Shown here: in pieces, positions 13,926 through 52,761 of the stretch | Layout of the letters: the number at the start of each line of letters is the position of its first letter | Numbering within the stretch: position 1 is the stretch's first letter | From: Chiloscyllium plagiosum | Lineage: Eukaryota | Direction of reading: 5' to 3' | Length of the DNA: 64,000 nucleotides | NCBI RefSeq assembly: GCF_004010195.1 | Contig: NC_057755.1 | Coordinates: 1,725,306 to 1,789,305 of the forward strand | The notes under the pieces: model-generated | Seen by the model: only the letters and a program-made list of their open reading frames with translations | Database searches by the model: none | What the model was told of the DNA's origin: nothing | Program-made: the position numbers and the translations under genes

Positions 13926-13989
13926 ATGCACCTGCCAGTTCAAACAGCCAGGTTTCTTTACATGATCCTTGCCATCGTTGTTGTTCCTG
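13926..13989 (+). pseudogene. Exon 1 of GPR139-like GPCR pseudogene A (MHLPVQTARFLYMILAIVVVP + G)
   Basis: ATG at 13926, 21 codons + 1 nt, ending CCT G|GTAAGT. Same size, phase-1 donor and ...Y..LA....P pattern as exon 1 of the two intact genes. Confidence 0.8.
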
Positions 13990-14144
13990 GTAAGTCTCTA
14001 TAGTTAACGACAATTTGTGGATGAGATCTCCCCTGTTTTTCTTTGTTAATTAAGAGCTTTGAATTCTAATACTGTGTTCAGTCTTATATCCACTTCGGAC
14101 TCGCAATGTCATACAGTTAAATTATATACAGAATTATAGCAGTA

Positions 14145-14965
14145 GGCACAACAGAAACAGACACTTCGGTGCTACTCGTCTATGCCAACCATATGGCTAA
14201 ATTAATCCAGTCCTATTTGCTAACACTGGGTCCATATCCCTCTAAACACTTCCTATCCATACACCCAACCAGATACGTTTTAAATTTGGTCAGAGCATTG
14301 AGTATAGGAGTTGAGAGGTCATTTTGCAGCTCTACGGGACATTGGTTAGGCCACTCTTGGAAAATCGTGTGCAATTCTGGTCTCCCTCTAATCCGAAAGA
14401 TGTTGTGAAACTTGAACGGGTTCATAAAATATTTTCAAGTTGCCCCTCAGGAGCAGCTTCCACACGCAGAGCATGGTATCTGTATGGAATAAGATGCCAC
14501 AAGAAGTCATAGAGTCATTGAGATCTACAGCATGGAAACATACCCTTCGGTCCAACCCGTCCATGCCGACCAGGTAATACAATGACAATATTTAAGAGGC
14601 ATTGGGTTGCTTATGTGAATGGGAAGGTTTTAGAGAGATATGGGCCAAATTCTGGAAAATAAGACGAGATTAGTTTAGGACATCTGGTCAGCATGGACGA
14701 TTTGAACTGACGGATTTGTTTCCATGCTATTCATCTCTATGAATATTTAACTCTAAATATTATAATTGCTCCAGCCTCCACCACTTCCTCTGCCAGCCCA
14801 TTCCACACACGCACCACCCACTGCATGAAAACATTGCTCCTCAGGTCTCTTTTCATTCTTTCCTCTCTCACCCTAAAGCTATGCCATCTGGTACAAGACT
14901 CCCCGACGCCAGGGAAAATACCTTGTCTATTTACTCTATCCATGCTCCCCATGATTTCAAAGAAT
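14145..14965. mobile_element. Cluster of short CR1 3'-end fragments in both orientations
   Basis: QLYGTLVRPLLENRVQFWSP (+, 14324-14420). MDRVNRQGIFPGVGES...RVWNGL (-, 14760-14960). Several CR1/SINE tails. Confidence 0.75.
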
Positions 14966-16519
14966 TCCATATGGCATTGTTGCATACCTGAACTGATTCA
15001 TCAGATTTACTACTCTGTAATTTTATTACATGAGTCAAATATCATAAACTGTTAAATCGGCCTCAGACCAAGGCTACCTTGAGGGAATGAATAATCGGAA
15101 ATGTCAGTAACTACAAAACTACAATAGATTTTGGACACACGCTACAGTGCATCGCCAAAACACAGTGCTCTCACATACTTGTAAGTATCTATATTTGCAC
15201 AGTTGCATTAAAAAAACACATCAGCTTCTTCCTAATTTAGAGAAAAGTGTTCAAGTTTTGTTTGGTATGACAGCTGATTGTTAAGAATGACGTTGTTGGC
15301 CTAGGTAACTAATGAGGTGAACCTATTGGCTTTTCAAAATATGGGAATGATGAAGATTTGAAGAACCATTTTCGTCTTGTAGAGTCATACAGCATAGACA
15401 CAGGCCCTTCAGTCTAACTCTTCCCTGCCAACCAGCCATCCAAAATCTGACCTAGTTCCATTTGCCAGCATTTGGCCCATATCTCTCTAAATATTTCGTA
15501 TTTATGTACACTTCCAGATGCGTTTTAAATGTTATAATTTCCCATCCCCATCAGCTTCTCTGGCAGCTCGTCTTGATTTAAAGTTTTAATCTGCAGTCGT
15601 GCCTGCCGTTTGCTGATGGAGTGTGTCCCTATGAGGAGAAACAGGTGTATGTACATTATTGGATTTCAAATGCAGGTTTCAATCAGAACTGAGAAATAAT
15701 TGCCAATTCCCTCTACTTTCTTAACATCAGAATTTTCATGAACTGACTTGTTTGGCTTCCCCATCCCACAATGCAAATGATTTGTTTCGGCATGAGTCCA
15801 GATCTGCACAGTGAGGTCGATTTTCCTTTCTGATAGTGACCATCCAATCATCTCAGAGACATAAAATAAACCAGAACACTCCTTAAACCCATAACCCGTT
15901 CTTAGTGACAGCAAGTCATTTTCTGTAAAATGCCCCACGACCATGTCCCACAGCTTCCTTCCAAAGGAACTGGCTGATTATATGTATTTGTTTGCATTCA
16001 TTCACCATTCCAATTGGAACTGTTCTCCTTCAATCTGGACTTTTCCGGGTGTTCTTGCTTCACATCTGAGTGGAGAACATTTACAGCTCTTTTAACGCCT
16101 TTTCTTTCCATTGCACTCTGCTAGATAAGCTGCAGGGTACTTCATTCTCTTTTACCACATTGCATAGCTTCACCTGCCAATCCCAGAAATTTTCTTTGCC
16201 TTCACATGCTTCGATGGCGATCATGGATTAATTTTTAGGCAATGAAGCTGGGCAAGCGGCTGAGGTATCATTTGGGAACATTTTGCAGACATTGATCGTA
16301 ACTCAAGATTGATATTGAAAATGATAAGGATTGGCCTTAATTCAAAGCTCTATTCTGGGCGGCAAGGTCGATTTTTGACAAGATAGGTGTGATTTAGACA
16401 GAGATCAGAGACTTTTACTTAAATCCTCGTCAGGGCAGTGTGACACATTCAAAAAGGAAACGGGGGATTACAGTGCCAACATGTTGCGCAAAAACAAAGG
16501 GTGGTATGAGCAATTACTC

Positions 16520-17365
16520 TAAACCCTGCATATCAGGAGATGTACAGGTTTAGTTAACAGATGATAAAAAAAGGTGAAGTGGTAAATAGTGAAGAGGACA
16601 GCCTTACAGTACAGGATGGTATGGACGACTTGGTTAGTTGAGTTGATTAGTGGTAAATGGAATTTAACTGGATAAGTGTGAGCTGATGCACTTAGGCAGG
16701 GCACACATGACAAGAAAATGCATGACAGAGGGTAGAAATCTGGGAAGTACTGAGAATCAGAGGGACCTAGGTGCACATGAATGCCGTAAGTAGCAGGATA
16801 GGTCGATGAAAATGTTTAAGAATGCAGAAAGAACATTTGTCCTTCCAATCCAGAACACAGACTTAAAGATTAGGGAAGGTATGCTGGAAATGTTGGCTAG
16901 TCCACAGCTAGGGTACTGTGTACAGTTCTAGAATCTACAGTTTAGGAGTGTTGTGATTTGCTTGGAGAGTATGCAACGATCGCCACGCCGATTTCAAGGA
17001 TGGAAAGTTTTAATTATGAAGAGGGGAGATTGTTGGGACACATTATTCACATGTTTAAAATTATTAGAGGCATAGACAGCGTAGTAAGGAAATAATTTTT
17101 GTGGATGGGACAATGACCATGGTCATAGATGCAAAGATGCAGAGGGTTTAGAAGGTATGTGATGGTTTATTTTTCCAACTACAGTTTGGAACTCAGCGCC
17201 TGTAAACAGTCCTCATAACATTGAAGTCTTTAGATGTGCATTTGTAATGCTTTGGCACTAATGCTGGAAAACTAGGTATGAATAATTAGGTAATTGTTTT
17301 TGACCAGAGTATGAATCTATACAATAATGCCCATTTTTTAATCTTTGTGCTATAACCTCTTTGTT
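16520..17365 (+). mobile_element. Old CR1 LINE 3' fragment
   Basis: Degenerate WxMEFN..KCELMH and LVxPQL.YCVQF motifs plus CR1 tail. Confidence 0.7.
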
Positions 17366-18366
17366 TTCATGACTTCTCCAACTCGTCTATGGCCTATCAT
17401 ATTTCTGACTAGTATTTCTGGAAGAACCATTGACAACCCACAACGATCCCGACTGTAAGTTTCTCAACTCTCGTTGTTAGGACATCCCACCTTTGTATAT
17501 GTATCATCGGCTTTTACATTTTAAACACTGCAATGAACAACATATTGCTACTTTGCCAAAATTTGCAAGAATCCAAGTCAAAAGTGCAGTATTCAATGTA
17601 TATTCACTGTCCTTATCTTCTTGAAAGCTACGTGTTGATAATTGAAGAGCGTTAATTGCAGGGTTGTGGGGCTTGCAATTAGGGCAGTCTGACATTTTAT
17701 GTGTGTTACCTTGATTTCCGTGCATCCAAGCAACAGGATCTGCCCCTCATCCTCCACCATATTTTCAGGTGACTGAGATTTGCTGCTTAACAAGATTTAA
17801 CATGGTCCTACCTACCTCATCTTTCACTGTTCTCGAAATGAAGCATTTGCACCCTGCTTGGAAACCACCTTTCAACAAAATGTAATATCACTGTCTGAGA
17901 TCATCATCCCTTTGTGATTGATATACATCTGCCCTCAAAACAAACATTAAAAAACATACCTCTTCCTTTACAACTTTTCTCTGACATTGTAGTTGATTTA
18001 TCTCGGCTCGCTTTTGATATTTTGCTGCCATAGTGATTTATTTTCCTCCTGACACGTTAATGCTATGATTCACTGTGGAGAGTTACCTATCTTTAGGGAA
18101 GGTAGGAGATGACCTATACGCGATTCCAGACCCACAACAATATAACTGAACCTTATTTATCCCCTGGGTAATTAGCAATTAGAAATAAATGCTGATCTAG
18201 CCAGCGATGCCAACACCCCATGAATGAATAGAAATAAAATTTTCCTGTCATGTAGTGTTGCCCAATTCTCACACCACATTATCTAGTTGTGTCGACTGTT
18301 CTTGAAGGAATCGCAGGCGGCATATAATTCAAGTTTACCCTTCCCTGGAGTTTTAGATTTTAGTCT

Positions 18367-18854
18367 AAAATGATTATCATGAACATACCATTTTACTGCA
18401 AGAATAAACAATAGCTACTTTAACGACCCTCGTTGGATTGTATTCCACTTATTTCCTATGGCCTTAATACCAATCGTGCCATTCTTTTTCACTGTGTTCC
18501 ATAATGTTCTGATAATCATGCGCATTTTATTTACAAGTCAAGTCCGTAAGGGATTGAGTGGTCAGAATAATGATGAGAAACAGAATGACCCAGAGATGAA
18601 AAATGGAATTACGGCAGGGATTTTACTCTTCACTATATCCCGAAACTTCATGCTTCTCTGGCTGCTGTATGTTTTATACATCCTTGAAAGATGATGACTA
18701 TGAAACCTTTGAACAAGTTGGATACATGCTGCACAATGTACGTTGCTGCACAAGCACATTTATTTACATGGCAACTCTGTCCAAGTTCCGACTTCAGTTC
18801 AAAAGAGCGATGGACTTTGCAGCTTGCAGAATTATTGAACTAATCACTGCATAA
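18367..18854 (+). pseudogene. GPR139-like GPCR pseudogene A, ECL2-TM7/helix 8 remnant of exon 2
   Basis: KMIIMNIPFYCKNK / SYFNDPRW...IPIVPF...SQVRKGL...DPEM...ILLFTISRNFMLLWLL / VGYMLHNVRCCTSTFIYMATLSKFR aligns to the gene at 28647. Frameshifts near 18410 and 18690. TM1-TM4 part not found. Confidence 0.88.
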
Positions 18855-19034
18855 GTCTGACAAATCTCAACATTCAGTGGGCAAGGTACAAGAAATGTCC
18901 AAAGGCAACCATTCTAGAGTTGCAAGTCTGTCAGAGAGAAATGAGAACGGGGAATATTCAGCAGACATCAAGAGAACCAAAGGAAGATGAAGATAAGGAC
19001 ACAGGTTTGACAATTCAAGGAGAAAAGGCGTCAT

Positions 19035-19328
19035 TTCTGTTCTGAAGATTGGTCACTGTATCCAAAATGTTAACTCTGACTTCTCTCCACAGATGCTGCC
19101 AAACCTGCTGAGTCTTTGCAGCAATTTATTTTGTTTGTTTTGTTTGACATTTGGGGGACCAGTGTAAATGAGCTGCAGCTAATTCACAGATGAATTCCTG
19201 ATGAAGGGAGTATACTTGAAAAGTCGATTGTCCTGCTCCTCTGATGCTGCCTGACGTGGTGTTTTTTTTTTCCAGCATCACACTCTCGACTCGATCCGCA
19301 GCATCTGCCGTCCTCACTTTCTCCTAGG
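19035..19328 (+). mobile_element. Two short Penelope-like terminal fragments with degenerate hammerhead motifs
   Basis: ctgaagattggtcactgtatccaaaatgtt...gatgctgcc and cctgatgaagggagtatacttgaaaagtcgat...gatgctgcctgac. The second is colinear with 24746-24873. Confidence 0.6.
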
Positions 19329-20974: not shown

Positions 20975-21625
20975 TTTCCCCCATAAGGGGAAATATTCTT
21001 TCAGTATTTACCTTGGACCAGCCCCTCGGGAATACTCTATATTTCATGTGAGATCATCTCTCATTCTCTAACCTCCAGTGAGTAGAGTCCCAACCACATT
21101 AACCATTGTTCATAAGGCTATCCCTCTGTACCAGGAGTCATCGGAGTGAACCTTTTCTGAACTTCTACCAATAAAATCTTGTGTTTCCATAAATACAGGG
21201 ACCAGAGCTGCTCACAGCCCTCCAGTTGTGGTCTCACTAGAAGCTTGTGCAGTCTGACCAAATTGCGTTTACTCTTATATTCCAACTCTTTTGAAATAAG
21301 GGCTGATATACCATTAACCTTTCCAATTACCTCTTCCCCTGTGTTAACTTACTGTGTTTCGTGTGCAAGTCCCTCCCAAGTGCACAGATTCACTATCTGC
21401 TTACAGAAAAAAATCCTGCTCATATCTGACTTAAATAGTTGACTCCTTATTTTGAGATAATGTCCTTTTGACCTAGACACTTCTACAAGGGAAACAATCT
21501 TTCCACATCTAGCCTGTCATGTCCCCTTAGAATCTGGTATGTTTCAATAAAGTTGCCTCACATTTTTCTGAACTCCAATGAATGCAGAGCCAACCTAAAC
21601 AACCACTCCTCATAACATAGTCCCT
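20975..21625 (-). mobile_element. Old CR1 3' fragments
   Basis: Typical CR1 3' coding remnants (tcattctctaacctccagtgagtagagtcccaacc...accagagctgctcacag) occurring twice. Confidence 0.6.
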
Positions 21626-21677
21626 CCTACCTGGCATAAGCAAGATGGGCAAGTGACCTCATGGTCATAGGAGAAGT

Positions 21678-22062
21678 CCTGAGTGTAGTCCATCTCTCAG
21701 CCATTGACAGACTGTACCGGATCCAGATTTCCAAATGGAAAGTGCAATGCTTTGCAGAACTCTTGCTAAGCTTCTCAGTGCACTGTCCCAGGCCCAGACT
21801 ATCCTTCACGGATTCAGTAAAGATCTGAATTGGACGTGGTGCCACTGAGAACTGTTCTGCAGGAACCATATAAACGTTGTTCAGGTCACAGCAAGAGTAC
21901 TGTTTTCACGCTGAAATCCATACGATGGGAGGGATGTCATAGCATTGAAGGTGGGGACAAAGGAAATTGGCCTGCATGTTGCCTGAGCGGAAGGGATTCA
22001 GTTATGAAGAGAGATTGGGCAGATTGGAGTTGTTTTCCTCAGAACATAGAAGATTGAGAGAG
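21678..22062. repeat. Left arm of inverted duplication (reverse complement of 25281-25661)
   Basis: cctgagtgtagtccatctctcagccattgacag...gaagattgagagag matches the reverse complement of ctctctaaatcttc...ggactacactcagg. Both translate MKRDWADWSCFPQN in the ORF track. Confidence 0.92.
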
Positions 22063-24875
22063 TCTGAGTGTTGGGCCTGAGAAAACGTGGGGGGAGGAGA
22101 AATGAGAAAGCTGGAGAAATCTGCATTCATCCCTTGTGGTTGGAGGGTTCCTAGGCGGAAGATGAGGCGCTCTTCCTCCAGGCGTCATGTTGCTATGGTC
22201 TGGCGATGGAGGGGTCCAAGGACCTGCATGTCCTTGGCGGATTGGGACAGGGAGTTAAAATGTTCAGCCACAGGACGGTTGGGTTGCTTGGTGCAGGTGT
22301 CCCAGAGTTGTTCTCTGAAATCTTCCGCCAGTAGGCGGCCTGTCTCCCCAATGTACAGGAGACTACATCGGGTGCAGTGGATGCAGTAAATGATGTGTGT
22401 GGAGGTGCAGGTGAATTTCTGTCGGATATGGAAGGATTCCTTGGGGCCTTGGAGGGAAGTGAGAGGGGTGATGTGGGCGCAGGTTTTGAATTTCTTGCGG
22501 TTAGTGCCGCAGGGGAAGGTGCCGGGAGTGGAGGTTGTGTTGGTGTGGGATGTGGATCTGACGAGGGAGTCAAGGAGGGAGTTGTCTTTCCATAAAGCTG
22601 ATAGGGGTGGAGACGGAAATATATCCTTGGTGGTGCGGTCTGATTGGAGATGGCGGAAATGACGAAGGATGATACGATGTATCTGGAGGTTGGTGGGATG
22701 TTAGGTGAGGACCAGTGAGGTACTGTCTTGGTGGCGATGGAGGGGCGGGGTTCAAGGGCGGAGGACCAGGAAGAGGAGGAGATGCGGTGGAGAGCATCGT
22801 CAACCACGTCTGAGGGGAAACTTCAGTCTCTGTAGAAGAAGGCCATCTGGGTTGTTCGTTATTGGAATTTGTCCTCCTGGGAGCAGATGCTGCGAAGGCG
22901 AAGGAATTTAAATATGAGATAGCGTTTTTACAGGGGGCAGGGTGGGAGGAGGTGTAATCTAGGTAGCTGTGGGAGTCAGTCAGTTTATAGTAAATGTCCG
23001 TGTTGAGTCGGTCGTCCGAGATAGAAAAGGAGAGGTCTAGGAAGGGGAGGGAGGAGTCTGCGAAGGTCCAGGTAAATTTGAGGTCGCAGTGGAAGGTATT
23101 AGTAAAGTGGATGAACTGTTCAACCTCCTCGTGGGAGCACGAAGTAGCACCGATACAGTCATCGATGTAGCGGAGGAAAAGGTGGGGGTAGTGCCAGTGT
23201 AGCTGCGGAAGATGGACTGTTCCAAATATTCTACGAAGAGGCAGGCATAGCTGGGGCCCACGCGGGTGCCCATGGCTACTCCTTTGGTTTGGAGGAAGTG
23301 GAAGGATTGGAAAGAGAAGTTGTTTAGAGTGAAGACCAGTTCAGTCAGTCGAAGGAGGGTTTCAGTGGACGGGTACTGGTTGGTTCAGCGGGAAAGAAGA
23401 AGTGGAGGGCTTTGAGTCCTTCGTGATGGGGGATGGAGGTGCATAGGGACTGGATGTCCATGGTGAAGATAAGGCGTTGGGGACCGGGGAAGCGAAAATC
23501 ATGGAGGAGGTGGAGGGCGTGGGTGGTGTCCCGAACGTAGGTGAGGAGTCCTTGGACTAAGGGGGGCAGGACCGTGTCAAGGTATGCAGAAATGAGTTCG
23601 GTGGGGCAGGAGCAGGCTGAGAAAATTGCCAGGACAGTCAGGTTTGTGGACTTTGGGCAGAAGGTAGCAAAGGATGGTGCGGGGTTGTGGGACTATGAGG
23701 TTGGAGACGGTGGATGGGAGATCCCGAGGTGATGAGGTTATGGATGGTCTGGGAGATGATGGTTTGCTGGTGGAACGTGGTGACATGGTCAATGGGGCTG
23801 TAGTAGGAGGAGGTGTCCGAGAGCTGGCGTTAGCGTCAGCAATATAAAGATTGGTTGCGCCAAACTCCCTCGTCTGCCGGTTTGTTGGCGTTGTTGGGGT
23901 TGGAGCGGAGGGAGTGGAGTGCTTCACGTTGCTACGGTGAGAGGTTGGAGTGGGTGAGAGGGGTGGACAGGTTGAGGTGGTCAATGTCACAGCGGCAGGT
24001 GTCCAGGTGTATGGGCTGTGTTGGAGCTGGGGGAAGGGGTCGTCAGCAGGTGGGCGGGAGTCCTGGTTGAAGAAGTAGGTGCGGAGGCGAAGGCGGCAGA
24101 ATAAATGCTCGATGTTTCACCACGTGTTGAATTCGTTAATCCGGGAGCGTAGGGGGATGAAGGTGAGGCCTCTGCTGAGAACTGATCTTTCATCCACAGA
24201 AAGGGGGAGGTCTGGAGGGATGGTGAAAATACGCCAGAGCTCGGAGCTAGGACCTGGTGTGGGACTGGAGCTGGGAGTGGGGGCGGAGTTAGGCGTGGGG
24301 GCGGAGATCGGCGCGAGGCACAGAAAACACCTCTGGGACACCCGCACCAACCAACCCAACCGTCCCGTGGCTGAACACTTTAACCCCCCCGCCCACTCCG
24401 CCAAGGACATGCAGGTCCTTGGACTCCTCCATCGCCAGACCATAGCAACACGACGCCTGGAGGAAGAGCGCCTCATCTTCCGCCTAGGAACCCTCCAACC
24501 ACAAGGGATGAATGCAGATTTCTCCAGCTTTATCATTTCTCCTCCCCCACCTTTTCTCAGGCCCAACACCCAGACTCAGCACTGCCTTCTTGACCTGCAA
24601 TCTTCTTCCCGACCCCTCCGTGCCCACCAACTCTCCGGCCTATCACCCTCACCTTAACTTCCTTCCACCTATCGTATTCCCAACGCTCTTCCCCCAAGTT
24701 CCTCCTCCCTACGTTTTATCTTAGCCTGTTTTACACACCTTCCTCAATCCTGAAGAAGGGCTTATGCCCGAAACGTCGATTCTCTTGCACCTATGTTGCT
24801 GCCTGACCTGCTGCGCTTTTTCCAGCAACACATTTTTAAGCTCTGATCTCCATCATCTGCAGCCCTCACTTTCTC
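22063..24875 (-). mobile_element. Penelope-like retroelement (RT + GIY-YIG, frameshifted) with inverted copy of its 3' end at about 24315-24875 on +
   Basis: GVAMGTRVGPSYACLFV and RYIDD (RT). IIYCIHCTRCSLLYIGETGR (GIY-YIG). N-terminal SVLSRGLTFIP. The + strand 24320-24576 mirrors 22063-22320. Confidence 0.92.
24746..24781 (+). ncRNA. Minimal type I hammerhead ribozyme motif in Penelope terminal repeat
   Basis: AATC-CTGAAGA-A-GGGC-TTAT-GCCC-GAAAC-GTC-GATT: stem I AATC/GATT, intact core, stem II GGGC/GCCC, loopless palindromic ACGT stem III, GUC cleavage triplet. Confidence 0.8.
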
Positions 24876-25280
24876 GTGGTATTATTGTTGGCACGGGTAT
24901 GGTAGGTCAAATGGCCTGTTCTTGTGCTGTGCTGTTCTATCTTCTCAGTGTGCATCTGCGAGCACAGGCATGCAAGGCTAAGGGCCAAATGTTTGAAAAT
25001 CGGGTAACAATGGGGTCGGATCACTGGGGAGGTGATGGCTATGTAGTAATATTGGTGGGCTGTTATTTTAGAGACCCAGTTGGCATTTTGGGACTTGGGT
25101 TCAATCCTGGTTTTGACAGCGACCTTAAAATGAACAAAACGAATGTCCTCATTCAGTCTAAATCCTCAACCACTTTCTGTAAATCCATGTCCTCTGCGCA
25201 GTGATACCTTCATCAACAGGAATAGTGTATTCATGTCTACTCTGTTTGTCCCTCTCATTATTAACAAATCGCAATCCTGT

Positions 25281-25661
25281 TCTCTCTAAATCTTCTTTAT
25301 TCTGAGGAAAACAACTCCAATCTGCCCAATCTCTCTTCATAACTGAATCTCTTCCGTTCAGGCAACATGTAGGCCAATCTCCTTTGTCGCCACGTTCAAT
25401 ACATCCCTCCCATCGTATGGATTTCAGCGTGTGAACAATACTCTTGCTGTGACCTGAACAACGTTTAATACAGTTCCTGCAGAACAGTTCTCAGTGGCAC
25501 CACGTCCAATTCAGATCTTTACTGAATCCATGAAGGATAGTCTGGGCTTGGGACAGTGCTCTGAGCAGCTTAGCAAGAGGTCTGCACAGCATTGCAATTC
25601 CCATTTGGAAATCTGGATCCGGTAGAGTCTGTCAATGGCTGAGAGATGGACTACACTCAGG
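25281..25661. repeat. Right arm of inverted duplication (reverse complement of 21678-22062)
   Basis: Direct sequence comparison shows scattered substitutions and small indels. Confidence 0.92.
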
Positions 25662-26325: not shown

Positions 26326-26474
26326 CGATTTGGAGATGCCAGTGTTGGACTGGAGTGTACAAAGTTAAAAAATCACATAACACCAGGTTATAGTCCAACC
26401 GGTTTAATTGGAAGCATACTAGCTTTCGAAGCGAAGCTCGTTAGGACTATAACCTGTGTTGTATGATTTTTAAC
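26326..26474. mobile_element. Second short fold-back Penelope-derived element (asymmetric)
   Basis: Same start as the 2143 element (gatttggagatgcc.gtgttggactgg.gtgtacaaagttaaaaa) with a short inverted tail ending gatttttaac. Flanking repeat TAAATGCA(T/G)CCA at 26314-26325 and 26475-26486. Confidence 0.78.
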
Positions 26475-26920
26475 TAAATGCAGCCAGACCACGACCCTCC
26501 CTGTAGTGGCGTGGCTAGTGCAGCAGAGGATAGTATTGCATCACGTGCAATGCATGGGTGCTGTATTGCACTATTGTAACTTTTCACCCCATGATAAGAT
26601 ATTTCTATTTGAGACTGCACTGGAGCATTATCTCACTGCAAAGGGCACGTTTAGTGCTGAAAAATAGTGGCCCCAGCTTTTTTTAACACACATACGTTCG
26701 TTTATTCATAACATGTGGAATTCATGGAACATGGTTCTTAACTGCACTGCTGAACATTGCTCTGAAAGTAGACAATGTTGCGACAGAAATAAATGTTTGT
26801 TGGTTCTAATAATATCATTAAATCACCTGCTCCAATTTCTTACATCAAAACAGCTCTTTAATCATTACTGATGAGAGAGACCATACATTTAATCGTCAAA
26901 TATTTTCTGACCAAATATTG

Positions 26921-28646: not shown

Positions 28647-29548
28647 TTATTTATTCATAATGTAAGTAATTCCTTTGACCAGATATTTTATTGTGTTACT
28701 AATCTTCGCTCTGAACCTGGACAATGTTGCTGCGTAAATAAATGTGTTTGTGCAACAATTTAACCTCTGCAGCATGAAACCAACAATACTGAAGTGGTAC
28801 AGAAAAGGCGAATAATCATCAGGTTGGATTCCTTGCATGACATAATATAAGAAATCTAAAACAACAATTAACCAAAGGAGTATGTAGCTCCCAGATATGG
28901 TGAAGAGCAAAATCACTGATTTTCTTCTGCTCTCCATCTCTGGGTCTCTGCAATTCTCTCCTTTGTTCTCACTCTTCAGCCTCTTTCGGACACGACTGGT
29001 TACTAAAATGTGTCTGACTGTCACAGCATTGAGCAACAGAATTAAAGCGAATGGCAGTAAAGGGGTCAACACTGTATCAAGCCAATCTAATGCTACCCAC
29101 CAAGTCTCAGTATAGTAGCTTGACTTCGTTTTGCAGTAGAATGGCATGTTGTTGATTATCTTCCAAGGCTCATATTGAAAATAGAAGGGGATGTTTTTCA
29201 AACAGAAGAGGGTGCTGATTGTTACGAGAACCACAGTTGCAGTTTTCGCAGTGCTATATGTTGTTCTCAGCTTCTGACAACAAATGGTTACAAACCGATC
29301 AAAGGAAAATGCCACAGTGAACCAGACTGAGCAGTCCCTGGCTGCACGAAACAGGACCATGTTGAGACTACAGACAGGTGTGATATCCAGGAAACACAAT
29401 GGGTAATAATAAATGCGAAAGCTTCTCAGTACAACATCAACAAAAATGACCATCAGATCGGCAGCTGCCATGACCACCAGGTAGCGAGTTGTGCAAGGAG
29501 AAACACCACACTTTCCACGAGAAAGGATAACAATCGCCAGCAAATTAA
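28647..29548 (-). CDS. GPR139-like orphan class A GPCR gene 1, exon 2 (spliced product 322 aa)
   Basis: Acceptor tttatgttccacag|TT AAT TTG (G+TT = Val, then the TM1 Asn). Open to TAA at 28647. Motifs YLVVMAAADL (TM2), PVC and FSFDRF (TM3), ECL2 Cys (FYC), PLLPF (TM5), LLFTIS...LLW (TM6), NCCTNTFIY (TM7), SRFR (helix 8). Confidence 0.93.
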
Positions 29549-30614
29549 CTGTGGAACATAAATGTGAAAATGTGCCTTCAATGACTGATCAGAAATCCCT
29601 CCTCCGTGTTCTACAGAACAATAAGATTTTACCAACATATTGTGACATATTGTATCAGTGGAAGTGGTTGGGGTTTGAGTGACTTTGAATTTTAAGACTT
29701 TCAAAAACAGATCATTCCCTCGCTCAATCTTCCCAGAGATTAGAAGTTTGCACAGGGACTGACGTTACAGCCAGTACTTGGAGAGCAGTAGGAAATCTGT
29801 AATGTTGTTTAGATGTAAAACAACAGATTAATTGTCTGTAGTAGATTCTTACAGTTCTCAACTCCAACTCTAGCAGGTACAGATTCCCATTATAAACCAC
29901 GTTCCCACTTAGTCAATGGGCTGGTGATTGGACAGTCAATAAACAAATCTCACCGCTTCTCCTTTAGTTAAATTATCCCCTGCACTTCCATCGGACTAAA
30001 TCATGATCAGAGCCACAAAAGGACAAGGAAACATCTCATCAGAACCTGCATAGGATTTCAAACAAGATTATTCCATGTATCTTTTATAAAACAGCATAAC
30101 AGTGCACGTTTGGATCCCTTCGTGAATACATGTGAGCCTTCTGATTGCATTGACATTTATACTGTAAATTTTAACACCTATACATGACAAACGTATCTAT
30201 GTGCAGGGATCAGGACGGCAATCTGCAAAGATTTGAATTCCCTAATTAGAGAGAGAGTGAGGATGAGGTAATTACCAGAAGGGCTGGCATTTAAATCAAG
30301 CTTTACATTTCAACATGGGGTGCATATTGCTCAATTCCTTAGTTTAACCAAAGATAATCTGTCTCAGAATTAAAATTCACAAATGGCCCAGCATCCACTC
30401 CCGTTTGTGGAATATGGAACCAAACCTTCTCCATACGTTGTGTGTCAAAGTGCTTCTATTAACTCACCTGAATGTTCTGGCCCCAATTCTCAGACTATAT
30501 CCCCTCATTATGGAATCCCCAACCAATGGAAATCATTTATCCTTTCCTGTCTTGTAGGACATCGCTTAGATCACCCATTAACCTTCCAAATTCTAGCGAA
30601 AATAGGCCTCGTTT

Positions 30615-30710
30615 GGAAAACAAAAATGGAAATTGCTCAGCGGATGTCTAGCATCTGTGAGAAAGAAAGCAGAGTGAAAGTTTTGGGTCCTGTGGTCTTT
30701 CTTCAGAACT
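30615..30710 (-). mobile_element. Short Penelope-like terminal fragment in gene 1 intron
   Basis: Minus strand ctgaagaaagaccacaggacccaaaactt...cagatgct, similar to the 19035 fragment. Confidence 0.5.
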
Positions 30711-30985
30711 AACTTGGATGATCTCTCCTCACACCTTCAAACGGTATGGAACCGGAACAGATGACAGAACACTGAGATCAGAAAATACTGCAGCAACAGT
30801 GAAGTTTGGAATCTCTGTCAGTGAGGACTTGTACAGAGAATGCTTCTAAGTGAATTGCTGTCACTGTTCCGTTGCCTGGATAAGGCTGACCAGTCAGTAA
30901 GCTCGAGACGTAATTTTTCAATAGATAAAATCAGAGAACAGATTGGCAGCAGATTAAAAGAAGTTCAATTGCCATAATACCATAC

Positions 30986-31052
30986 CAGGGATACTAATAA
31001 AAGCAAGGGTCGTGTAGAACACTTTCTCCACGTGATCAATTGGTCGATGCAT
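30986..31052 (-). CDS. GPR139-like GPCR gene 1, exon 1 (MHRPIDHVEKVFYTTLAFISIP + G)
   Basis: aaaaATG at 31052, 22 codons + 1 nt, CCT G|GTATGG donor. Joins exon 2 in frame across a 1437-nt intron and completes TM1 (..ISIP-V-NLLAIVIL). Confidence 0.88.
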
Positions 31053-31138
31053 TTTTCTGAGAGAGGTGACCTGTCCTTTCAGGCAGCTGACAAACTCCTT
31101 GTCTGAAACTCTGAACTAAAGCATTTCTAGAGATGCTG

Positions 31139-31147
31139 CCTTATACT
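31139..31147 (-). promoter_or_regulatory. Candidate TATA box of GPCR gene 1
   Basis: Minus strand agTATAAgg about 90 nt upstream of the ATG; support is positional only. Confidence 0.35.
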
Positions 31148-31440
31148 ATGTGGAAGCTCCTTGGGGAGATTGAAGTTACAACATTTCTCGGTTTTGTTGA
31201 TGTTTTTCAAATTTCTTTAAATAAACAAATTAATTACAAGAATCCATTTAATCGCAATTATTGCAGCGCTGTATCACAATAGAATAACAAAAACAATCTG
31301 GAATATTCCAGGAATAATCCAGTCCACTGAAACACCATGAGTGCGATCTTGAGATGACAAATTATTTCAACTGATGTTTCCCCTAGACAATTTATTTCAA
31401 ATGTGAATTAATGTCTTAGGGCTGTCCTTCTGCAAGCACA

Positions 31441-31781: not shown

Positions 31782-32768
31782 GCTGAAAAATGTGTTTCTG
31801 GAAAAGTGAAGCAGGTCAGGCAGCATCCAAGGAGTAGGAGAATCAATGTTTCGGGCATAACCCCTTCTTCAGGGTTGGAACTGAGATAAGGTGGAGGGAG
31901 GGGAAATGAGGAAGCTGGAGAAATCTGCATTCATCCCTAGGGGGAAGATGAGGCGCTCTTCCTCCAGGCGTCGTGTTGCCAGGATCTTGGCGATGGAGGA
32001 GGCCAAGGACCTGCATGTCATTAGTGGAATGGGAGGGGACATTAAAGTGTTCAGCCACAGGGCGGTTGCGTTGGTTGGTGTGAGTGACCCAGAGGTGTTC
32101 TCTGAAACGTTCCACAAGTAGGCGGCCTGTCTCCCCAATGTAGAGGAGGCCACATCGGGTGCAGCGGATGCAGTAAATGATGTGTGTGGAATGTATCTGG
32201 AGGTTGGTGGGGTGGTAGGTGAGGACTAGTGGGGTTCTGTCCTGGTGGCAATTTTAGGGGCGGGGTTCAAGGGCGGATGAGCGGGAAGTGGAGGAGATGC
32301 GGTGGAGAGCATCGTCAACCACGTCTGAGGGGAAATTCCGGTCTTTGAAGTAGGAGGCCATCTGGGTTGTTCAGCTTTGGAATTGGTTGTCCTGGAAGCA
32401 GATGCGGCGAAGGTGAAGGAATTGGGAATATGGGATGGCGTTTTTACAGGGGGCAGGGTGGGAGGAGGTGTAATCTAGGTAGCTGTGGGAGTAGGTCGGT
32501 TTATAGTAAATGTCTGTGTTGAATCGGTCGCCCGAGATAGAAATGGAGAGGTCTAGGAAGGGGAGGGAGAAGTCTGAGACGGTCCAGGTAAATTTGAGGT
32601 CGCGGTGGAAGGTGGATGAACTGTTCAATCTCCTCGTGGGAGCACGAGGCAGCGCCAATACAGTCATTGATGTAGCGGAGGAAAAGGTGGGGGATGGTAC
32701 CAGTGCAGCTGCGGAAGATGGACTGTTCCACATATCCGACAAAGAGACAGGCATAGCTGGGGTCCATG
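31782..32768 (-). mobile_element. Internally deleted Penelope-like element, same family as 22063-24875
   Basis: PSYACLFVGYVEQ...FLRYINDC, LPFLDLSI...DIYYKPT, YIGETGR, RRLEEERLIF. Terminal hammerhead-like motif cctgaagaaggggttatgcccgaaac at about 31848-31873. Confidence 0.9.
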
Positions 32769-33039
32769 CGTGCCTATGCGCTGTCGTCTTTAAACAAGAA
32801 CATTTTATTCTCTGATTGAAATGTGATTCTTTGCACACATTTATTGTGTGAATTGCTGCCGAGGTCATCATTTATTTCCCATGACTAAGTCCCCAGGATC
32901 TGGAGTCACAGGAAGGACCAAATGAAGGGGAACATTCCGCCTTTGCTCAGGGAAGGGGTCTCAGTAAACAAGAAAGGGTTTCCAACAATGGAAACATCAC
33001 TGACATCACTCTTGACGTCACATTGATACAAGCAGTTCT

Positions 33040-36359: not shown

Positions 36360-37285
36360 GTTTGCTCCATAGTTCTTTTCTAAATCTCTTCTCTCTCAAC
36401 TTAAACGTTTCCCTTTTCCAAACTGTAACCAGATCATGTCTATGCTACTCAAGATTTTATAAACCTCTATACGATCACCCATTAGCTTCCAAAGCTGAAG
36501 GGAAAACAGACCCAGCCTCTCCCTTCAGCGCAAACCGTCCAAACCAGGCAGAATCCATTCAAATCTTTTCTGAATACTTTCAAGTTTTACGACATCTTTA
36601 CTGTAGCAGGGAGGCCAGAATTGAACGCTGTACTTTAAAAGTCGTTGAATTCATTTTCTATACACCCGCAACGTGCTCTCCCAATTCCGATACTCAATGC
36701 ACTGGCCAATAAATTCAAGCATACCAAACGCCTTCTTCATCACATGTCTCCTGTGACTCCTCTTTCCAGGAATTATGAACCTGCACTACAAGGCCTCGTT
36801 GTTCAACAACAGTCCCCAGGACCTCACTATTAAATGTATAAGTCATGCCCTGATTTGCCTTACAAATATGCTGCACCTCACTTTCATGTAAGTTAATTCA
36901 TCTGCCACTCCTCTGCTCATTTACCCACCTGATCAAGTCCCATTGTACTCTCAGGTAATCTTCGTTATTGTCTACCACATCACCAATCTTCATGTCATCT
37001 GCAACCTTATTAACCATGCATCCTGTATTCACAGTCAGGTCATTCATATGAATGACAATAAACAAGAACACAGCACCAATCCTTGCAGCACACCGTTGGT
37101 CACAAGCCTCCAGTCCAAAAGAAAACAGCCCTGCATCACTATCCTCTGTCCATTACCTTCAAGCCAAGTTCATATTCAAATCGCTAGCTCTGCATTATGT
37201 TCCATATGATCTAACCGTGCGAACTAGTCTTACAGATATATCCTTGTCAAATGCCTTACTAAAGCCCAGATAAATAACGTCCATC
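36360..37285 (-). mobile_element. Old CR1 RT/3' fragment
   Basis: gtcatctgcaacctt (FADD on minus), ttgtcaaatgccttactaaag (FSKAFDK on minus), and 3' coding remnants. Confidence 0.8.
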
Positions 37286-37288
37286 ACA

Positions 37289-37442
37289 AGGCTCAAATAC
37301 AAAGTAGGACGACACGTTCTTTAAATGACGCAGGAAATGGGTTGTTGCTCGAAGCACAGCTGCCATTTTGTTTTCTGCTTCTGGAAACAAATGGCCACAA
37401 ATCAGTCAAAGGAGAAAGTGATGATGAAGCAGGCAGAGTTGT
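37289..37442 (-). pseudogene. GPR139-like GPCR pseudogene B, TM3-TM4 remnant
   Basis: Minus strand NSACFIITFSFD*FVAICFQKQKTK / MAAVLRATTHFLRHLKNVSSYFVFEP versus gene 1 DCSVWFTVAFSFDRFVTICCQKLRTT...LFCLKNIPFYFQYEP. Stop at 37402-37404 replaces the DRF Arg. Confidence 0.85.
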
Positions 37443-37444: not shown

Positions 37445-38250
37445 GCATTGGATGTAGGTTTGCTCGCTAAGCTGGGTGGTTCATTTCCAGACGTTTCATT
37501 GCCTTACTAGGTAACATCTTCAGTGGACTTATGCAAAGCAATGCTGAAACTTCCTGCTTTCTATTTATATGCTTGGGTTTCTTTGGGACAGTGATGTCAT
37601 TTCCTTTGGTGATGTTATTTCCTGTAGTGAAATCACTTCCTGTTCCTTTTCTCAGGGGGTGGTAGTTGGGGTCTAAAACGATGTGTTTGTTGATAGAGTT
37701 CAGGTTGGAATGCCATGCTTATCGGAATTCTCGTGCATGTCTTTGTTTGGCTTGTCCTAGGATGGATTTATTATCCGAATCGAAGTGGTTTCCTTCCTCG
37801 TCCGTATGTGAGGATACTAGTGAGAGAGGGTCATGTCTTTTTGTGGCTAGTTGGTGTTCATGTACCCTGGTGGCTAGTTTTCTGCCTGCTTGTCCAATGT
37901 ATTGTTTGTTACAGTCCTTGAACGGTATTTTGTAAATGACATTAGTTTTGCTCATTGTCTGTATAGGGTCTTTCAAGTTCATTATGTGCTATTTTAGTGT
38001 GTTGGTGGGTTTGTGGGATACCATGATGCCAAGGTGTCTGATTAGTCTGGCAGTCATATCTGAGATGTTTTTGATGTGGGGGAGAGTGGCTCGGGTTTCT
38101 GGGCGTGTTTTGTCTGCTTGTTTGGGTTTATTGATGAGATATCGACGGACTGGCTTCATTGGGTACCCATTCTTTTGTACACACTGTGAAGGTGATGTTT
38201 CTCTGCTCTGCATAGTTCCTTTGTGCTGCAGTGTGACTTGGCTCGTAGAA
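37445..38250 (-). mobile_element. Penelope-like element (distinct family), GIY-YIG 3' part, inserted in pseudogene B
   Basis: NVIYKIPFKDCNKQYIGQAGRKLATRVHEH and LPHIKNISDMTARL. Terminal ccactgaagatgttacctagtaaggcaatgaaacgtctgg hammerhead-like motif at about 37487-37526. Confidence 0.88.
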
Positions 38251-38261: not shown

Positions 38262-38420
38262 ATGCACCCACAAACGAAGTTGCGTCTGTGAACGAAAGAC
38301 CGTGACAAATAATAATAACAGATTGTCGCAGTATAATGAAGGTGATGATGATCATTAGAGCTGCTGCAGTCGTGGTCATGAGAGGAAGTAATGGCTTAGT
38401 AGTACTAAAACTGAGAGCTG
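38262..38420 (-). pseudogene. GPR139-like GPCR pseudogene B, ICL1-TM2-ECL1 remnant
   Basis: LSFSTTK....TAAALMIIITFIILRQ then frameshift to CYYYLSRSFVH, versus gene 1 VSPCTTRYLVVMAAADLMVIFVDVVLRSFRIYYYPLCFLD. Lies immediately upstream of the TM3 remnant once the Penelope insert is removed. Confidence 0.65.
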
Positions 38421-48700: not shown

Positions 48701-48791
48701 AAATTTGAGGGTGCATACATGAGGATCAGTGGTCTGCACAACATCGTGGGCTGAAGGGCCTGTTCTGTGCTGTACTGTTCCATGTTCTATG
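45716..48791 (+). mobile_element. Relatively young CR1 LINE, 5'-truncated in ORF1, nearly complete ORF2 with few stops/frameshifts
   Basis: ORFs 46093-47100 (GVYYRAPN, SDFNFP, SDHN), 47193-47543, 47562-48071 (GVPQGSVLGP, KFADD), 48424-48708. Tail ctgtactgttccatgttctatg. Confidence 0.95.
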
Positions 48792-49420
48792 ACATTTTCT
48801 TCCTCTGGACCCGTGATGAGGAGTCACTGAAATAACTACGCAGTGATATCAATGAGTCTCATCCCACAATCAGACTTACCATGGACTACTATTTAGTATC
48901 TGTCACATTGTTGGACACATGCATTTCCATCAATGATGGGCACCTCAGCACCTCACTGTATTGCAAACCCACAGATAACCCCATGATGCTGCACTTCTCG
49001 AGCTTCCACCCGAAATATATTAAAACAACCATCCTCTATGAGCAATCCCTCTCAACACACAGGAAGTATTCGGATGAGGAGGAACGTGGCGAACACTTGA
49101 AACTGCTCAAGGATGCCCTCGTACGGACAGGGTGCGAAAACTTCACACAGACCATTAACCAAGGCTGCAATGGACCCCACGTCTCTGAGGCAACTGTGCT
49201 AACAATTGAGCCAAAGTGCCACCACTTACAGAAGTAAACTGCCAATACCATGGTAACGTCTCTCCAACATTCCTGGTCACACTTGATTTATTTAAAGGCA
49301 AGCGTTGGTCTACTTCTACCTGAAAGATATTCAATGCCCAATATTCCACAAACTGGTACAAATGCATAACCATATCATTCAGTATATACTATATACCATT
49401 CTGTATAGTATATACTATAT
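48792..49420 (+). mobile_element. Penelope-like RT/GIY-YIG fragment
   Basis: DIFFLWT...LLDTCISINDGHLSTSLYCKPTD...SFHPKYIK. Confidence 0.75.
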
Positions 49421-50004
49421 ACTATATTCCATATACCATTCTGGTGAATTGACACCGAACTCAAATACAAAATGACTCCCAAGTCCCTACTTTTTCTTGC
49501 TTTTCTCTATTAATCAAGTGCCTGCCATTGCTATGCGAACATGAAACCGCAACAGTGAATAAACAAAAAATGGCTGACGAACTGATTTCTTCAGAATCGT
49601 TCGTTCTGCCTTGCAGATTAAAACACATCTCACGTTTTTTATGTTCTCTTCTGTCAGCCTGCAACAGATAAAATACAGATGGGTCCGAAATAAAGTCATA
49701 GAAGTGAACATGGAGGTAAATCAATGTTCATGGGATTAAAGGAGCAGTAGCAGAATGGACACAACTTTGGCTCAGATACAGGCGCAGGGTAGAGGTTAAT
49801 GTTTCTTTCAGGTTCGTTGGAGCTATAGAGTGTGATCCCCCAGAGGTTCAGAATAGGACTACTACTTTGTACTGTTAATGGACTGTACTTAGATTTGCAT
49901 GACATAATGTCAGACTTTGCAGATGACACAGAATTGAGAAGGTAGAAAAAAAATCAAAAGAATAATAGCCATGTTTAAGATGATAGCGACAGAATTTATT
50001 TAAA

Positions 50005-50222
50005 GGAGAAAGTCACGACTGTCGATGTTGGAGATCAGAGTCGAGACTGTGATGCTGGAAACGTACAACACGTCAGGCAGCATCTGAGGTGCGGGAGAAT
50101 AGATGTTTTGGGCACAGGACCTTTGTCATAATCATGATGAAGGGATTATGCCCAAATGAAGTCGATTCTACTGACCCTCAGTTGCTGACTGACCTGCTGT
50201 GCCTTTCCAGCACCACACTCTA
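50005..50222. mobile_element. Fold-back Penelope-like terminal element
   Basis: Left gatgctggaaa..gtcaggcagcatctgagg is inverted against right cctcagttgctgactgacctgctgtgcctttccagcac. Centre at about 50130 with tgatgaagggattatgccc. Confidence 0.7.
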
Positions 50223-50315
50223 GAAACTGTTTACAGTTGGTCGGAGGATGAAATTGGTCCACAGGCTTCCTGATGCTGTCTCAATAAAATATTCACAACG
50301 AGACTTCCCTGCTCT

Positions 50316-50915
50316 TGTGACAATGCTGCCCATTTAACAAAGTTATGTTGTCATTGTTTTTCTTTCAAAAACTGTTGCCGAAATGGTTAACAGATCCTGT
50401 ATAAGCCAACAATGAGAGGATGACTTTAGGTCTTTTTAATATTGTTGTGTGATTAAAGGGGAGTGACCAGTCCTCCTCGTTCAAGATTACTTCAGACAGT
50501 TTCCAGCAGGGAGTCAGAAAAATGCTGGTAACAGAGAAGCAGCTACCATGAAAACATATTCCATGCTTAATGGTGTTCTTGCCTGAAGTCTGTCTGGTCT
50601 GTAAGAACCTGTGTTCGAATTTACCATTTGCCAAGGGATATGGTTGTGGACCATTACGGGGATTGGAACAACGCCTTCGTTAATTTGGGACAGAGTCAGT
50701 TGGGTTAGCAAATAAGCCTCATTATTCTCAACTCTGTTTTCTTTTGTTCATGTTTCATCCGTAGTGTTTAAATAAAAACTGTTTTGTTTAAAGCTGAGTG
50801 CTTTGGCAAGCTGTATCCCTCCTGGAATATTCACTCTACCTAAACATATGCTAAATGTTTGGGTATTGGTTACCTTTTTAAAGTGTTTTGACGAGTTCTA
50901 GCTTTGTCCATGAAA
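50316..50915 (+). mobile_element. Solo LTR related to the LTR at 4658
   Basis: Begins tgtgacaatgctgcccatttaacaaagttatg (cf. tgtgacgaagctgcacctttaacaaggttatg). AATAAA at about 50771, followed by tttgtttaaagctgagtg...cctggaa as in 5135-5180. Confidence 0.75.
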
Positions 50916-51181
50916 CCCTTGATGACCAATTAATAAAAAAACTCTTAATTTGATTAAAGTAAAAACGAGGGAGATGAAAGCTTTTTTTCTGTTATTAAGA
51001 GCAAAATCGTCTCCCAATGTCCTTTTTGTCATCAACAAATAATTAGAAAACTTGGATAAAATTTTACTATAAAACAATAGCAATCAAATGTTGGTACAAA
51101 ACTGAAGAAAATCAAACCTGAGAAATATCAATTTCCAGAAAGAAGAACTTACGGATTCATTGTTTTTCAATCTATTCAATT

Positions 51182-52083
51182 TTATTTAAACAATCTCTGA
51201 ATTAGTTTCAGAGGAGATGTAATTACATTTTTCAGTTCTTCTCTGAATTTGCTCTGCGTTGCTGCATAAATGCATGGATTTAAAAAAGAACTCAGACAAG
51301 CCAGAAAATGTCGGGTTTCAGTAGCGATATATTTTGGATGTGTTCGATCCCCTCGGTAATAATTGGCATTTGTCATTCTGGTAATTACTAAAGTCACTGA
51401 ATTTGTTAACCATAGCAATAGAAAACTGATAGATACAGAGAACAGTAGGATAATAGACTTTCTCCGGCTTTCTATTTCTGAATCGCTGTAATTCTCATTT
51501 CTTTGACTCCGAAGTCCTGTGCGGGTTCTGTTGGACATTAAAATACGTCTGACAGTTAAAGAATTAAACAAGACAATTAGACTAAAAGGAAACCAGACGA
51601 CGGAGGCACTGTAAAACCAGACAAATGCTATACCTGCAGATGAAGAAAAAAATGCTTTACTTGATCGACAGCCCCACTTCACCTTATTAAGTATTTGCTC
51701 AGGTTCATATGCAAATAAAACTGGGATGTCCTTGAACAGGATCAAGACAGAGAGACTTGTTACAACTACTGATGCCGTTCTTTTGGTGCAATACTTGGTT
51801 TTAAGCTTCTGGCAGCAGATAACGACAAATCGATCAAATGTGAAAGAGACAATGCACCAAACTGACAAACTGGGATTGAGAGCAACCATGTACACAATTA
51901 CCCGACACACAGAAGTGTGGGACAGGAATGAAAGTGGAAAGTGATAAGTAAAAATATAATATACTATTACATTGATTTTGATGACCAGTAGATCTGTTGT
52001 TGCCATAGCCAGCATGTAAACAGAGATACATTTAGAAAGGCCACATTTCCCTCGCATGAGAATCACCATAGTCATCAAGTTGG
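51182..52083 (-). CDS. GPR139-like orphan class A GPCR gene 2, exon 2 (spliced product 323 aa)
   Basis: Acceptor ttgttctctctttcag|CC AAC (G+CC = Ala, then the TM1 Asn). Open to TAA. Motifs RGKCGLS, YMLAMATTDL, SVC, FTFDRF, WGC, WFPF, LLFSVS...LLW, NPCIY, SKFREEL. Confidence 0.93.
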
Positions 52084-52379
52084 CTGAAAGAGAGAACAAA
52101 ATGCTGTACCAGTGTCTGCTTAAATAGACATGTAAGTACCCGTTGAAAGTACCATTTCTTATGATTCTCTAAACAGGATAATTACTGTCACCGTCATTAA
52201 ACCAATCCAACTCACCCTGTTCAGGATGCTGAAAAAAGTCCAAAAATTCACCAAACTGTTTTTTCCTTGATCATGAAGGAATATCACCATTACATTAGTA
52301 TAGCATTCATGTGATGCGAAATGCAGAAAAAAATGTGCACAGTTTTGATGTGTTTGTTGCAGTAAATACTCATGATGGA

Positions 52380-52550
52380 GCAAAAACAAAAATTGCTGGA
52401 AATGTTCAGCAGTTCTCTTCGAATCTGAGGAGAGAATGCAGAGTTAATGTTTTGAAGAAATGTGACTGGTCTCGAAATGTGGACTCTGCTTTCCTTCCAG
52501 ACGTGCTACCAATCCTGTTGAGTCTCTTCAACAATTTCCTTTTTTTCGGA
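52380..52550. mobile_element. Degenerate fold-back Penelope-like fragment in gene 2 intron
   Basis: aaattgctggaaatgttcagcag...gcagagt is inverted against actctgc...ctgttgagtctcttcaacaattt, with a tgaagaa...cgaaatgt core. Confidence 0.5.
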
Positions 52551-52691
52551 TTTCCAGGAAACACAATTTTTTGGTTATATTATCATCTATGGATTACCGA
52601 CAGTGGGAAAGGAAATTCGTTTATCCAATGTGGAGGGTAAACAATGAGACAAGTTTCACATACAAAAATGAAGCACATCGGACTTACTCAC

Positions 52692-52761
52692 CAGGAAGAG
52701 CAACAGCTGCAAGAATGGGATAGTAAATCTCTTTCACCAGCAGAATGGTTGGTTTACCCAT
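52692..52761 (-). CDS. GPR139-like GPCR gene 2, exon 1 (MGKPTILLVKEIYYPILAAVALP + G)
   Basis: agaATGG start, 23 codons + 1 nt, CCT G|GTGAGT donor. 608-nt intron; in-frame join gives ..VALP-A-NLMTMVIL. Confidence 0.92.

Follow-up and report, generated by a model that had tools for sequence, protein, structure and literature searches.

A 64,000-nucleotide stretch of the genome of the shark Chiloscyllium plagiosum (RefSeq assembly GCF_004010195.1, contig NC_057755.1, positions 1,725,306 to 1,789,305; hereafter the window) holds two intact two-exon genes for G-protein-coupled receptors (GPCRs), here called A and B, and three dead copies of the same kind, whose database relatives are named after the human receptor GPR139. 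What are these receptors, from which ancestor did they arise, and what might they detect? Judged by sequence, the family to which they belong is a lineage-expanded GPCR repertoire grown from a new root, and its function is predicted. Hundreds of its members are already listed in gene catalogues, under the wrong name; what is new here is a sister gene in amphibians and sturgeon, together with a controlled contrast in the variability of the ligand pocket. In databases every copy carries the name of an unrelated human receptor, itself single-copy, and this has kept the family out of sight. Literature searches aimed at it, with subscription journals outside their reach, found no description of the family; in the 24 supplements of the whale-shark genome paper, GPR142 occurs a single time, in an orthogroup list, and GPR139 is absent. 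Cartilaginous fishes have been said to show a 'relative paucity' of GPCRs (PMC8455134).

A receptor family of cartilaginous fishes and its relatives

Genes were found by six-frame translation and tblastn, followed by splice-site and profile scans of the window. The family resemblance of the copies is not due to chance, because the family-profile E-values are so low (1e-107 to 1e-124 for the intact genes, 2e-26 and 1.5e-6 for two dead copies, psi1 and psi2). Genes A and B encode class A (rhodopsin-like) GPCRs. Both match Pfam 7tm_1 (E 1e-18 and 3e-18; 67-68 bits against a cut-off of 30.5), the sole Pfam family matched by all of the 48 family members scanned, and both have N1.50, D2.50, DRF for DRY, P5.50, W6.48, N7.49 and Y7.53. 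W4.50 and P6.50 are absent from both and P7.50 is present in B only; among the relatives of A and B (clades A and B), proline occupies 6.50 in 3 of the 120 clade B rows and is outside the five commonest residues in clade A. Cys3.25 is found in 239 of 240 relatives, and the cysteine of the second extracellular loop (ECL2), on a predicted beta-hairpin, is nearly invariant. A structure model of exon 2 only (predicted local distance difference test score 76.7) comprises transmembrane helices TM2-TM7, helix 8 and the ECL2 hairpin; in Foldseek its template-modelling scores against peptide-receptor structures are about 0.6-0.7, and no relative is singled out, GPR139 ranking fourth among near-equal peptide receptors. 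The idea that gene B is decaying was rejected: A and B carry 2 rare substitutions each, compared with a median of 3 in their relatives.

The family is large. Database protein searches at E<=0.001 gave 1991 of 3071 candidates with gene A as query and 1465 of 2321 with gene B, and the best 120 matches for each were examined. All 240 come from sharks, of 11 species (horn shark 80, sawshark 54, sevengill 29, whale shark 14, zebra shark 13 and six others, a few of the proteins being isoforms), and nearly all are automatically named 'probable G-protein coupled receptor 139'. The best identities among the matches listed are 81% for A, whose nearest kin are carpet sharks, and 69% for B; therefore, neither gene appears to be present in the searched protein collection. 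A profile search returned 139 clusters (50% identity representatives) at E<=1e-30, and the 30 proteins looked up include members beyond sharks, from skates, a stingray, an electric ray and the chimaera Callorhinchus; lookups of neighbouring protein clusters gave the same automatic name and FMRFamide-receptor-like clusters only. C. plagiosum DNA itself contains many related copies. In a DNA run from this species, up to 66 differing contigs stack on one exon-2 site, and contigs identical to the gene A intron have a depth of 8-12; the summed contig depth over exon 2 (1294-30033, compared with that 8-12) is no copy number and was not used as one. Exon 1 of gene A and the adjoining 31053-31218 have a summed DNA-contig depth of 2273-3409, compared with 17-109 in unique intron, and the database protein P0325 matches positions 30960-31184 of the window. 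The original prediction of a lineage-expanded birth-and-death family is supported by the intact and dead copies lying side by side, by the 139 clusters and by the stacked contigs; instead of one to a few copies in one-to-one orthology, there are five copies in the window and at least 80 proteins in horn shark alone among those listed. Its description of the family as elasmobranch has to be widened to chondrichthyan, as the chimaera member nests inside.

We regard it as very improbable that A and B are co-orthologues of GPR139 or GPR142 proper and share their ligands. Databases do name the members GPR139, GPR139 is likewise encoded by two exons, and it ranks first among the PDB matches both of gene A (E 1.6e-9) and of the family profile (72.9 bits; next 50.7). 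However, human GPR139 and the product of gene A agree at about 27% of positions (74 identical letters, counted from the alignment), whereas the zebrafish and human GPR139 proteins share 70% identity (PMC7318219), and GPR139 is absent from the 22 PDB matches of gene B (E<=0.001). With the family profile, human GPR139 scores 73 bits, below unnamed transcriptome receptors (110-118) and below receptors, all automatically named GPR139, of a salamander (218), coelacanth (202), silverside (184), amphioxus (146), anchovy (133) and caecilian (112). Activation of GPR139 by Trp and Phe needs F109, H187, W241 and N271 (PMC5430874). Mapped by eye from the alignment, these residues are R, D, W and F in A and A, Y, W and H in B, so that one of the four is kept; GPR139 has Asp at 3.25 (counted from the alignment), whereas the family has Cys3.25, as part of a TM3-ECL2 cysteine pair, and has lost P6.50. 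GPR139 is, moreover, single and highly conserved. What the family shares with GPR139 and GPR142 (PDB 7vug) is the rank of nearest solved structure by profile, the two-exon gene, W6.48 and, in most members, the lack of P7.50; the intron presumably interrupts the same TM1 codon in GPR139 and GPR142. From these comparisons, the family is probably not GPR139/142, in line with the earlier suspicion that it is not true GPR139.

The placement of the family among its other relatives comes from trees from which GPR139 and GPR142 are absent. In a careful tree of 32 rows, the family forms one clade (support 96/93) with chimaera and skate inside, and its sister is a clade of amphibian and sturgeon sequences (100/100; both together 99/99); coelacanth/teleost, anchovy and amphioxus clades fall outside. 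A quick tree of 79 rows agrees. A and B belong to different sub-clades, each common to many shark orders. The members of the sister gene include XP_069092602.1 of Pleurodeles, XP_069461538.1 of Ambystoma, P0407 of Xenopus tropicalis and RXM35349.1 of Acipenser. A search with the salamander protein gave 25 matches. Twenty are amphibian clusters, one from each of 20 species that represent all three orders (66-74% identity); of the other five, one is from sturgeon (46%) and four belong to the chondrichthyan family (32-33%). No amniote or teleost was among these 25, in a word-limited search that implies no absence in other lineages. Because there is one cluster per species, the amphibian/sturgeon orphan is apparently single-copy. 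The expansion of the family is confined to sharks, rays and chimaeras, and the sister gene exists in bony vertebrates.

The sister orphan (P0331, P0404-P0423) is itself misnamed GPR139. It resembles the shark family in its short N-terminus (24-25 residues before N1.50), Cys3.25, N5.58 and the motif DPEM-x-x-R-R-[KR]-S before TM6. In contrast to the shark family, with its many copies, variable pocket, D2.50 and lack of P6.50, it has one cluster per species, an invariant cationic pocket (R2.61, K6.51, K6.55 and R7.35), N in place of D2.50 and a retained P6.50; mutual identity is 32-33%. Beyond it lie two or more additional orphan clades of vertebrates and one of amphioxus (P0341, P0350, P0369, P0383 and P0362), in which the N-terminus is likewise very short and the automatic name is again GPR139. 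Orphans without a human orthologue, GPR210A, GPR210B and an unnamed third subtype, have been described beside GPR139/142 in coelacanth, gar and teleosts (PMC6504862). The outer vertebrate clades are probably these 'GPR210' sets, to which the coelacanth, silverside and anchovy relatives (P0341, P0350 and P0369) would correspond. A difference is that the GPR210 sets are described as small, without a function, in a main text that names no shark (PMC6504862). The nearest kin are thus the unnamed amphibian/sturgeon orphan and other GPR210-like vertebrate orphans, in place of the GPR139/142 originally proposed.

Variation in the ligand pocket and at the G-protein face

The pocket was taken as 35 positions in class A numbering, in a list written after the per-site table had been seen; the rows compared are top database matches rather than a random sample and are mutually related, and the alignments are of proteins and give no ratio of non-synonymous to synonymous rates (dN/dS). 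In clade A, entropy falls from 1.52 in the pocket to 0.91 at outer non-pocket sites, 0.53 at inner sites and 0.27 at the G-protein face (pocket versus outer, p 0.005). The same holds among paralogues of one species, where pairwise identity in the pocket compared with other TM sites is 0.58 versus 0.84 in horn-shark clade A, 0.65 versus 0.87 in sawshark clade A, 0.53 versus 0.73 in sawshark clade B and 0.60 versus 0.77 in sevengill clade B. For these four paralogue sets, no more than 1% of random site sets are as low as the pocket (300 random sets, first 20 rows of each paralogue set).

The control is provided by the amphibian orthologues, which match the horn-shark clade A paralogues in mean identity (0.78). 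Here the pocket is the least variable class (entropy 0.12), with an identity of 0.95 compared with 0.80 at other TM sites. At eight pocket sites, picked with the data in view, all 22 amphibian sequences and the sturgeon carry the same residues, from which all 52 horn-shark paralogues differ; the cytoplasmic face is conserved in both the shark paralogues and the amphibian orthologues. The conserved G-protein face and variable ligand face that had been noticed by inspection have thus been measured against an orthologue control, in four of five within-species paralogue sets. At the level of protein sequence, this contrast is the signature of a ligand-diversified repertoire. A fixed amphibian pocket beside a variable shark pocket makes it likely that the ancestor-like gene has one fixed ligand and that the shark copies have re-tuned the pocket with the cytoplasmic face held.

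Proposed origin and possible roles of the repertoire

We propose that one ancient orphan receptor of the FMRFamide-receptor/GPR139 neighbourhood, with a cationic pocket, began to duplicate before the chimaera-elasmobranch split and survives in amphibians and sturgeon, apparently as one gene; GPR139 has been linked to the FMRFamide/myosuppressin-receptor group (PMC12208981). Copies would be born in tandem together with their promoter and first exon, as a multi-copy 5' block, and would die by deletion, frameshift or retroelement insertion (three of the five here), the survivors diverging in the pocket. The ligand of the ancestor would have been single and fixed, probably an anion (for example an amino acid or the C-terminus of a peptide), because the sister gene combines R2.61, K6.51, K6.55 and R7.35 with three of the four GPR139 Trp/Phe-site residues (F3.33, W6.48 and N7.39 are kept in all 22 amphibian sequences). 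Each shark copy is predicted to bind a different water-soluble ligand, likely with a shared G protein, and the copies would be expressed sparsely in water-facing sensory cells, whether of the olfactory epithelium or among the chemosensory cells of taste and skin, and would make up another chemoreceptor family of vertebrates. We regard such external chemosensing as the best reading, with about an even chance of being right. Somewhat more tentative is the full proposition, namely that this is an unrecognised chondrichthyan chemoreceptor family, larger than all known olfactory families together, recruited before the chimaera-shark split from an orphan amino-acid or peptide sensor that stayed frozen in amphibians and sturgeon.

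Several known systems bear on the chemosensory reading. The olfactory receptor families of sharks are small (OR 6-13, TAAR 3-5, V1R 2-4 and V2R 8-43; PMC10116579), and at least 80 proteins in one shark exceed the summed maxima of these four families (65). If the reading is true, it would explain chemical discrimination by sharks despite few OR, TAAR, V1R and V2R genes. The family shares its evolutionary pattern of clusters, pseudogenes, a variable pocket and a conserved cytoplasmic face with OR, TAAR, V1R, V2R, T2R, FPR and Mrgprs, but it belongs to none of them by sequence, and a phase-1 intron in TM1 divides its coding region. A similar birth-and-death expansion has been described for the nematode srw receptors, which are related to the FMRFamide/myosuppressin-receptor group and for which sensing of environmental peptides has been speculated (PMC2576165). 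The shark expansion is independent, and none of the 48 family members scanned matches Pfam Srw (PF10324) at E<=0.01. The Srw cut-off is passed by two of six non-shark relatives scanned (P0369 and P0377).

A number of observations weigh against a chemosensory role. The pocket excess over outer non-pocket sites is borderline in clade B (p 0.068), and one of the five paralogue sets, horn-shark clade B, has none (0.66 versus 0.73; 25% of random sets as low). The variability was measured in protein, and relaxed constraint on the pocket stays compatible with it because protein variability is not dN/dS. About 2% of one single-cell run of unknown tissue, aligned to gene A only at 80% likeness, gave 24 reads, on both strands, of which none is at least 95% like A and none crosses the intron; a second single-cell run gave 0 reads on gene A, and in a contig set guessed to be RNA all 68 records are under 95% to gene A and one runs into the intron. 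With the tissue unidentified and only a small part of the run sampled, this absence of gene A reads neither supports nor refutes a sensory role. O/E-type promoter sites were considered as support and rejected, with 13 found compared with 21 expected and one upstream of A only. Catshark olfactory neurons are reported to be microvillous and V2R-dominated (PMC10116579), and the main text of the 'Sensory Shark' paper does not mention GPR139. Finally, the evolutionary pattern is equally in keeping with GPCR families of immune or somatosensory function.

The main rival reading, which we consider unlikely but worth serious attention, is one in which the copies form an internal surveillance repertoire, expressed in somatosensory neurons, mast-like cells or leukocytes, that detects microbial, parasite or damage-derived peptides in the manner of mammalian Mrgprs and formyl-peptide receptors (FPRs). 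Those families bear the same signature of tandem copies, pseudogenes, a short N-terminus and a variable pocket, and the modelled ECL2 beta-hairpin with its nearly invariant Cys3.25/ECL2 cysteines is as in peptide receptors. The niche could also stand open, as cartilaginous fishes are reported to be without MAS1-related receptors (PMC8455134). Against this, the family has no sequence relationship to FPRs or Mrgprs, GPR139 being its best PDB match and well ahead of the next, and the recorded expansions of the wider clade (srw) are classed as chemoreceptors. We think it improbable that the copies are gut or neuro-endocrine nutrient sensors that enlarge a GPR142-like role in the detection of lumenal amino acids and peptides. 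GPR139 and GPR142 respond to L-Trp and L-Phe, and the pancreas and the gut are sites of GPR142 action (PMC7318219), which would suit such a role. Also in its favour, F3.33, W6.48 and N7.39 are retained in the sister gene, but the shark copies have lost those site residues except W6.48. In addition, nutrient sensing is not known to call for dozens to hundreds of pocket variants.

Equally improbable in our estimation is a mostly neutral proliferation in a repeat-rich, duplication-prone region, in which few copies matter and the pocket has been released from constraint. It would accord with the death of three of five window copies amid LINE-like fragments, with a gene A transcript not seen in the runs examined and with the aberrant N-termini of 84 of the 240 database models, which suggest poor transcript support. 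Nevertheless, the G-protein face and structural residues hardly vary from species to species and divergence is confined to the pocket, each of the two clades takes in many shark orders, a chimaera member nests in the family, and third codon positions take 12 of 21 listed exon-2 differences between gene A and its paralogues (p 0.02). Whichever tissue proves to be concerned, this would be an unstudied, ligand-diversified repertoire. RNA-seq data from shark organs could separate roles in smell, taste, skin and immunity, and the conserved single-copy sister gene in Xenopus and axolotl offers a tractable route to the ancestral ligand; this orphan would be worth deorphanising in Xenopus in its own right.

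Gene models, dead copies and repeats in the window

The coordinates of the receptor genes, their remnants and associated elements are given in Table 1. The four paralogues originally described, two intact and two dead, are all confirmed, and a fifth remnant had been missed. The predicted architecture was borne out by the gene models, exon 1 of A and of B ending CCT G/GT (the slash marks the exon end) within TM1. The GT-AG introns are 1437 nt in A and 608 nt in B, and the products of 322 and 323 amino acids have zero internal stops. Psi1 lies on the opposite strand to A, B, psi2 and the fifth remnant; its TM1-TM4 and exon 1 of psi2 were not found in the window scans.

Table 1. Receptor genes, remnants and associated elements in the window (position 1 is its first nucleotide).
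Feature	Position	Strand	Remarks
psi1 exon 1	13926..13989	+	64 nt; ATG to CCT G/GT donor
psi1 exon-2 remnant	about 18316..18850	+	ECL2 to helix 8; stop and frameshifts; nhmmer E 6.6e-39
Fifth remnant	26698..26853	-	TM7 end and helix 8; in-frame stops; nhmmer E 1.6e-5
Gene A exon 2	28647..29548	-	902 nt with stop; TM1 end to C-terminus
Gene A exon 1	30986..31052	-	67 nt; N-terminus matches database relatives
Region upstream of gene A	31053..31218	-	likely duplicated promoter/5' untranslated region; multi-copy along with exon 1
psi2 remnant	37284..37442	-	TM3-TM4; stop inside DRF motif and frameshift; E 2.7e-11
Decayed retroelement fragment splitting psi2	37450..38240	-	reads like a Penelope-type GIY-YIG endonuclease end
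Probable psi2 TM2 piece	38275..38382	-	weak: E 0.77 and E 3.3 in two scans; co-linear position supports
Gene B exon 2	51182..52083	-	902 nt with stop
Gene B exon 1	52692..52761	-	70 nt

The proteins of A and B are 40% identical. Identical positions number 7/9 and 7/10 in the first and second intracellular loops, 6/24 in ECL2, 2/13 in the third extracellular loop, 13/36 in TM5, 9/28 in TM2 and 6/22 in TM7; the two extracellular loops and TM5 are thus divergent, as first described, but TM7 and TM2 diverge as much as TM5. The cytoplasmic motifs reported as shared are present in intact A and B and not in the dead copies (psi1 is without ESRRKS). The short N-terminus is general and bears out the first exons of A and B, 156 of 240 database relatives having 20-28 residues ahead of the first exon-2 Asn. 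Among the other models, 36 are without exon 1 and 48 have over-long N-termini; several of the latter match LINE fragments of the window, false first exons having been built from repeats by gene predictors.

Upstream of three first exons (31053-31200 and 52762-52900 on the minus strand, 13800-13925 on the plus strand), a loosely matching stretch of about 30 nt precedes a TATA-like word. In both A and B, a CAGCTG E-box also stands 30-40 nt ahead of the ATG. These resemblances are weak and come from a comparison of just three sequences, and the three upstream regions align weakly. AATAAA overlaps the last codons or the stop codon in A and B (28647-28660 and 51177-51190), which could mean a very short 3' untranslated region. 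A short interspersed repeat in the gene A intron (30400-30760) draws reads from both RNA-type runs. The insert in psi2 (37450-38240, minus strand) is retroelement-like and has a GIY-YIG-like motif, from which we take it to be a Penelope-type GIY-YIG endonuclease end, with zero Pfam matches. The remainder of the window reads largely as decayed LINE-like repeats, including an element at 21678-25661 with long inverted arms (21678-22317 versus 25661-24321, 92-93% identical), a second copy of which lies at 31871-32778 with about 87% identity.

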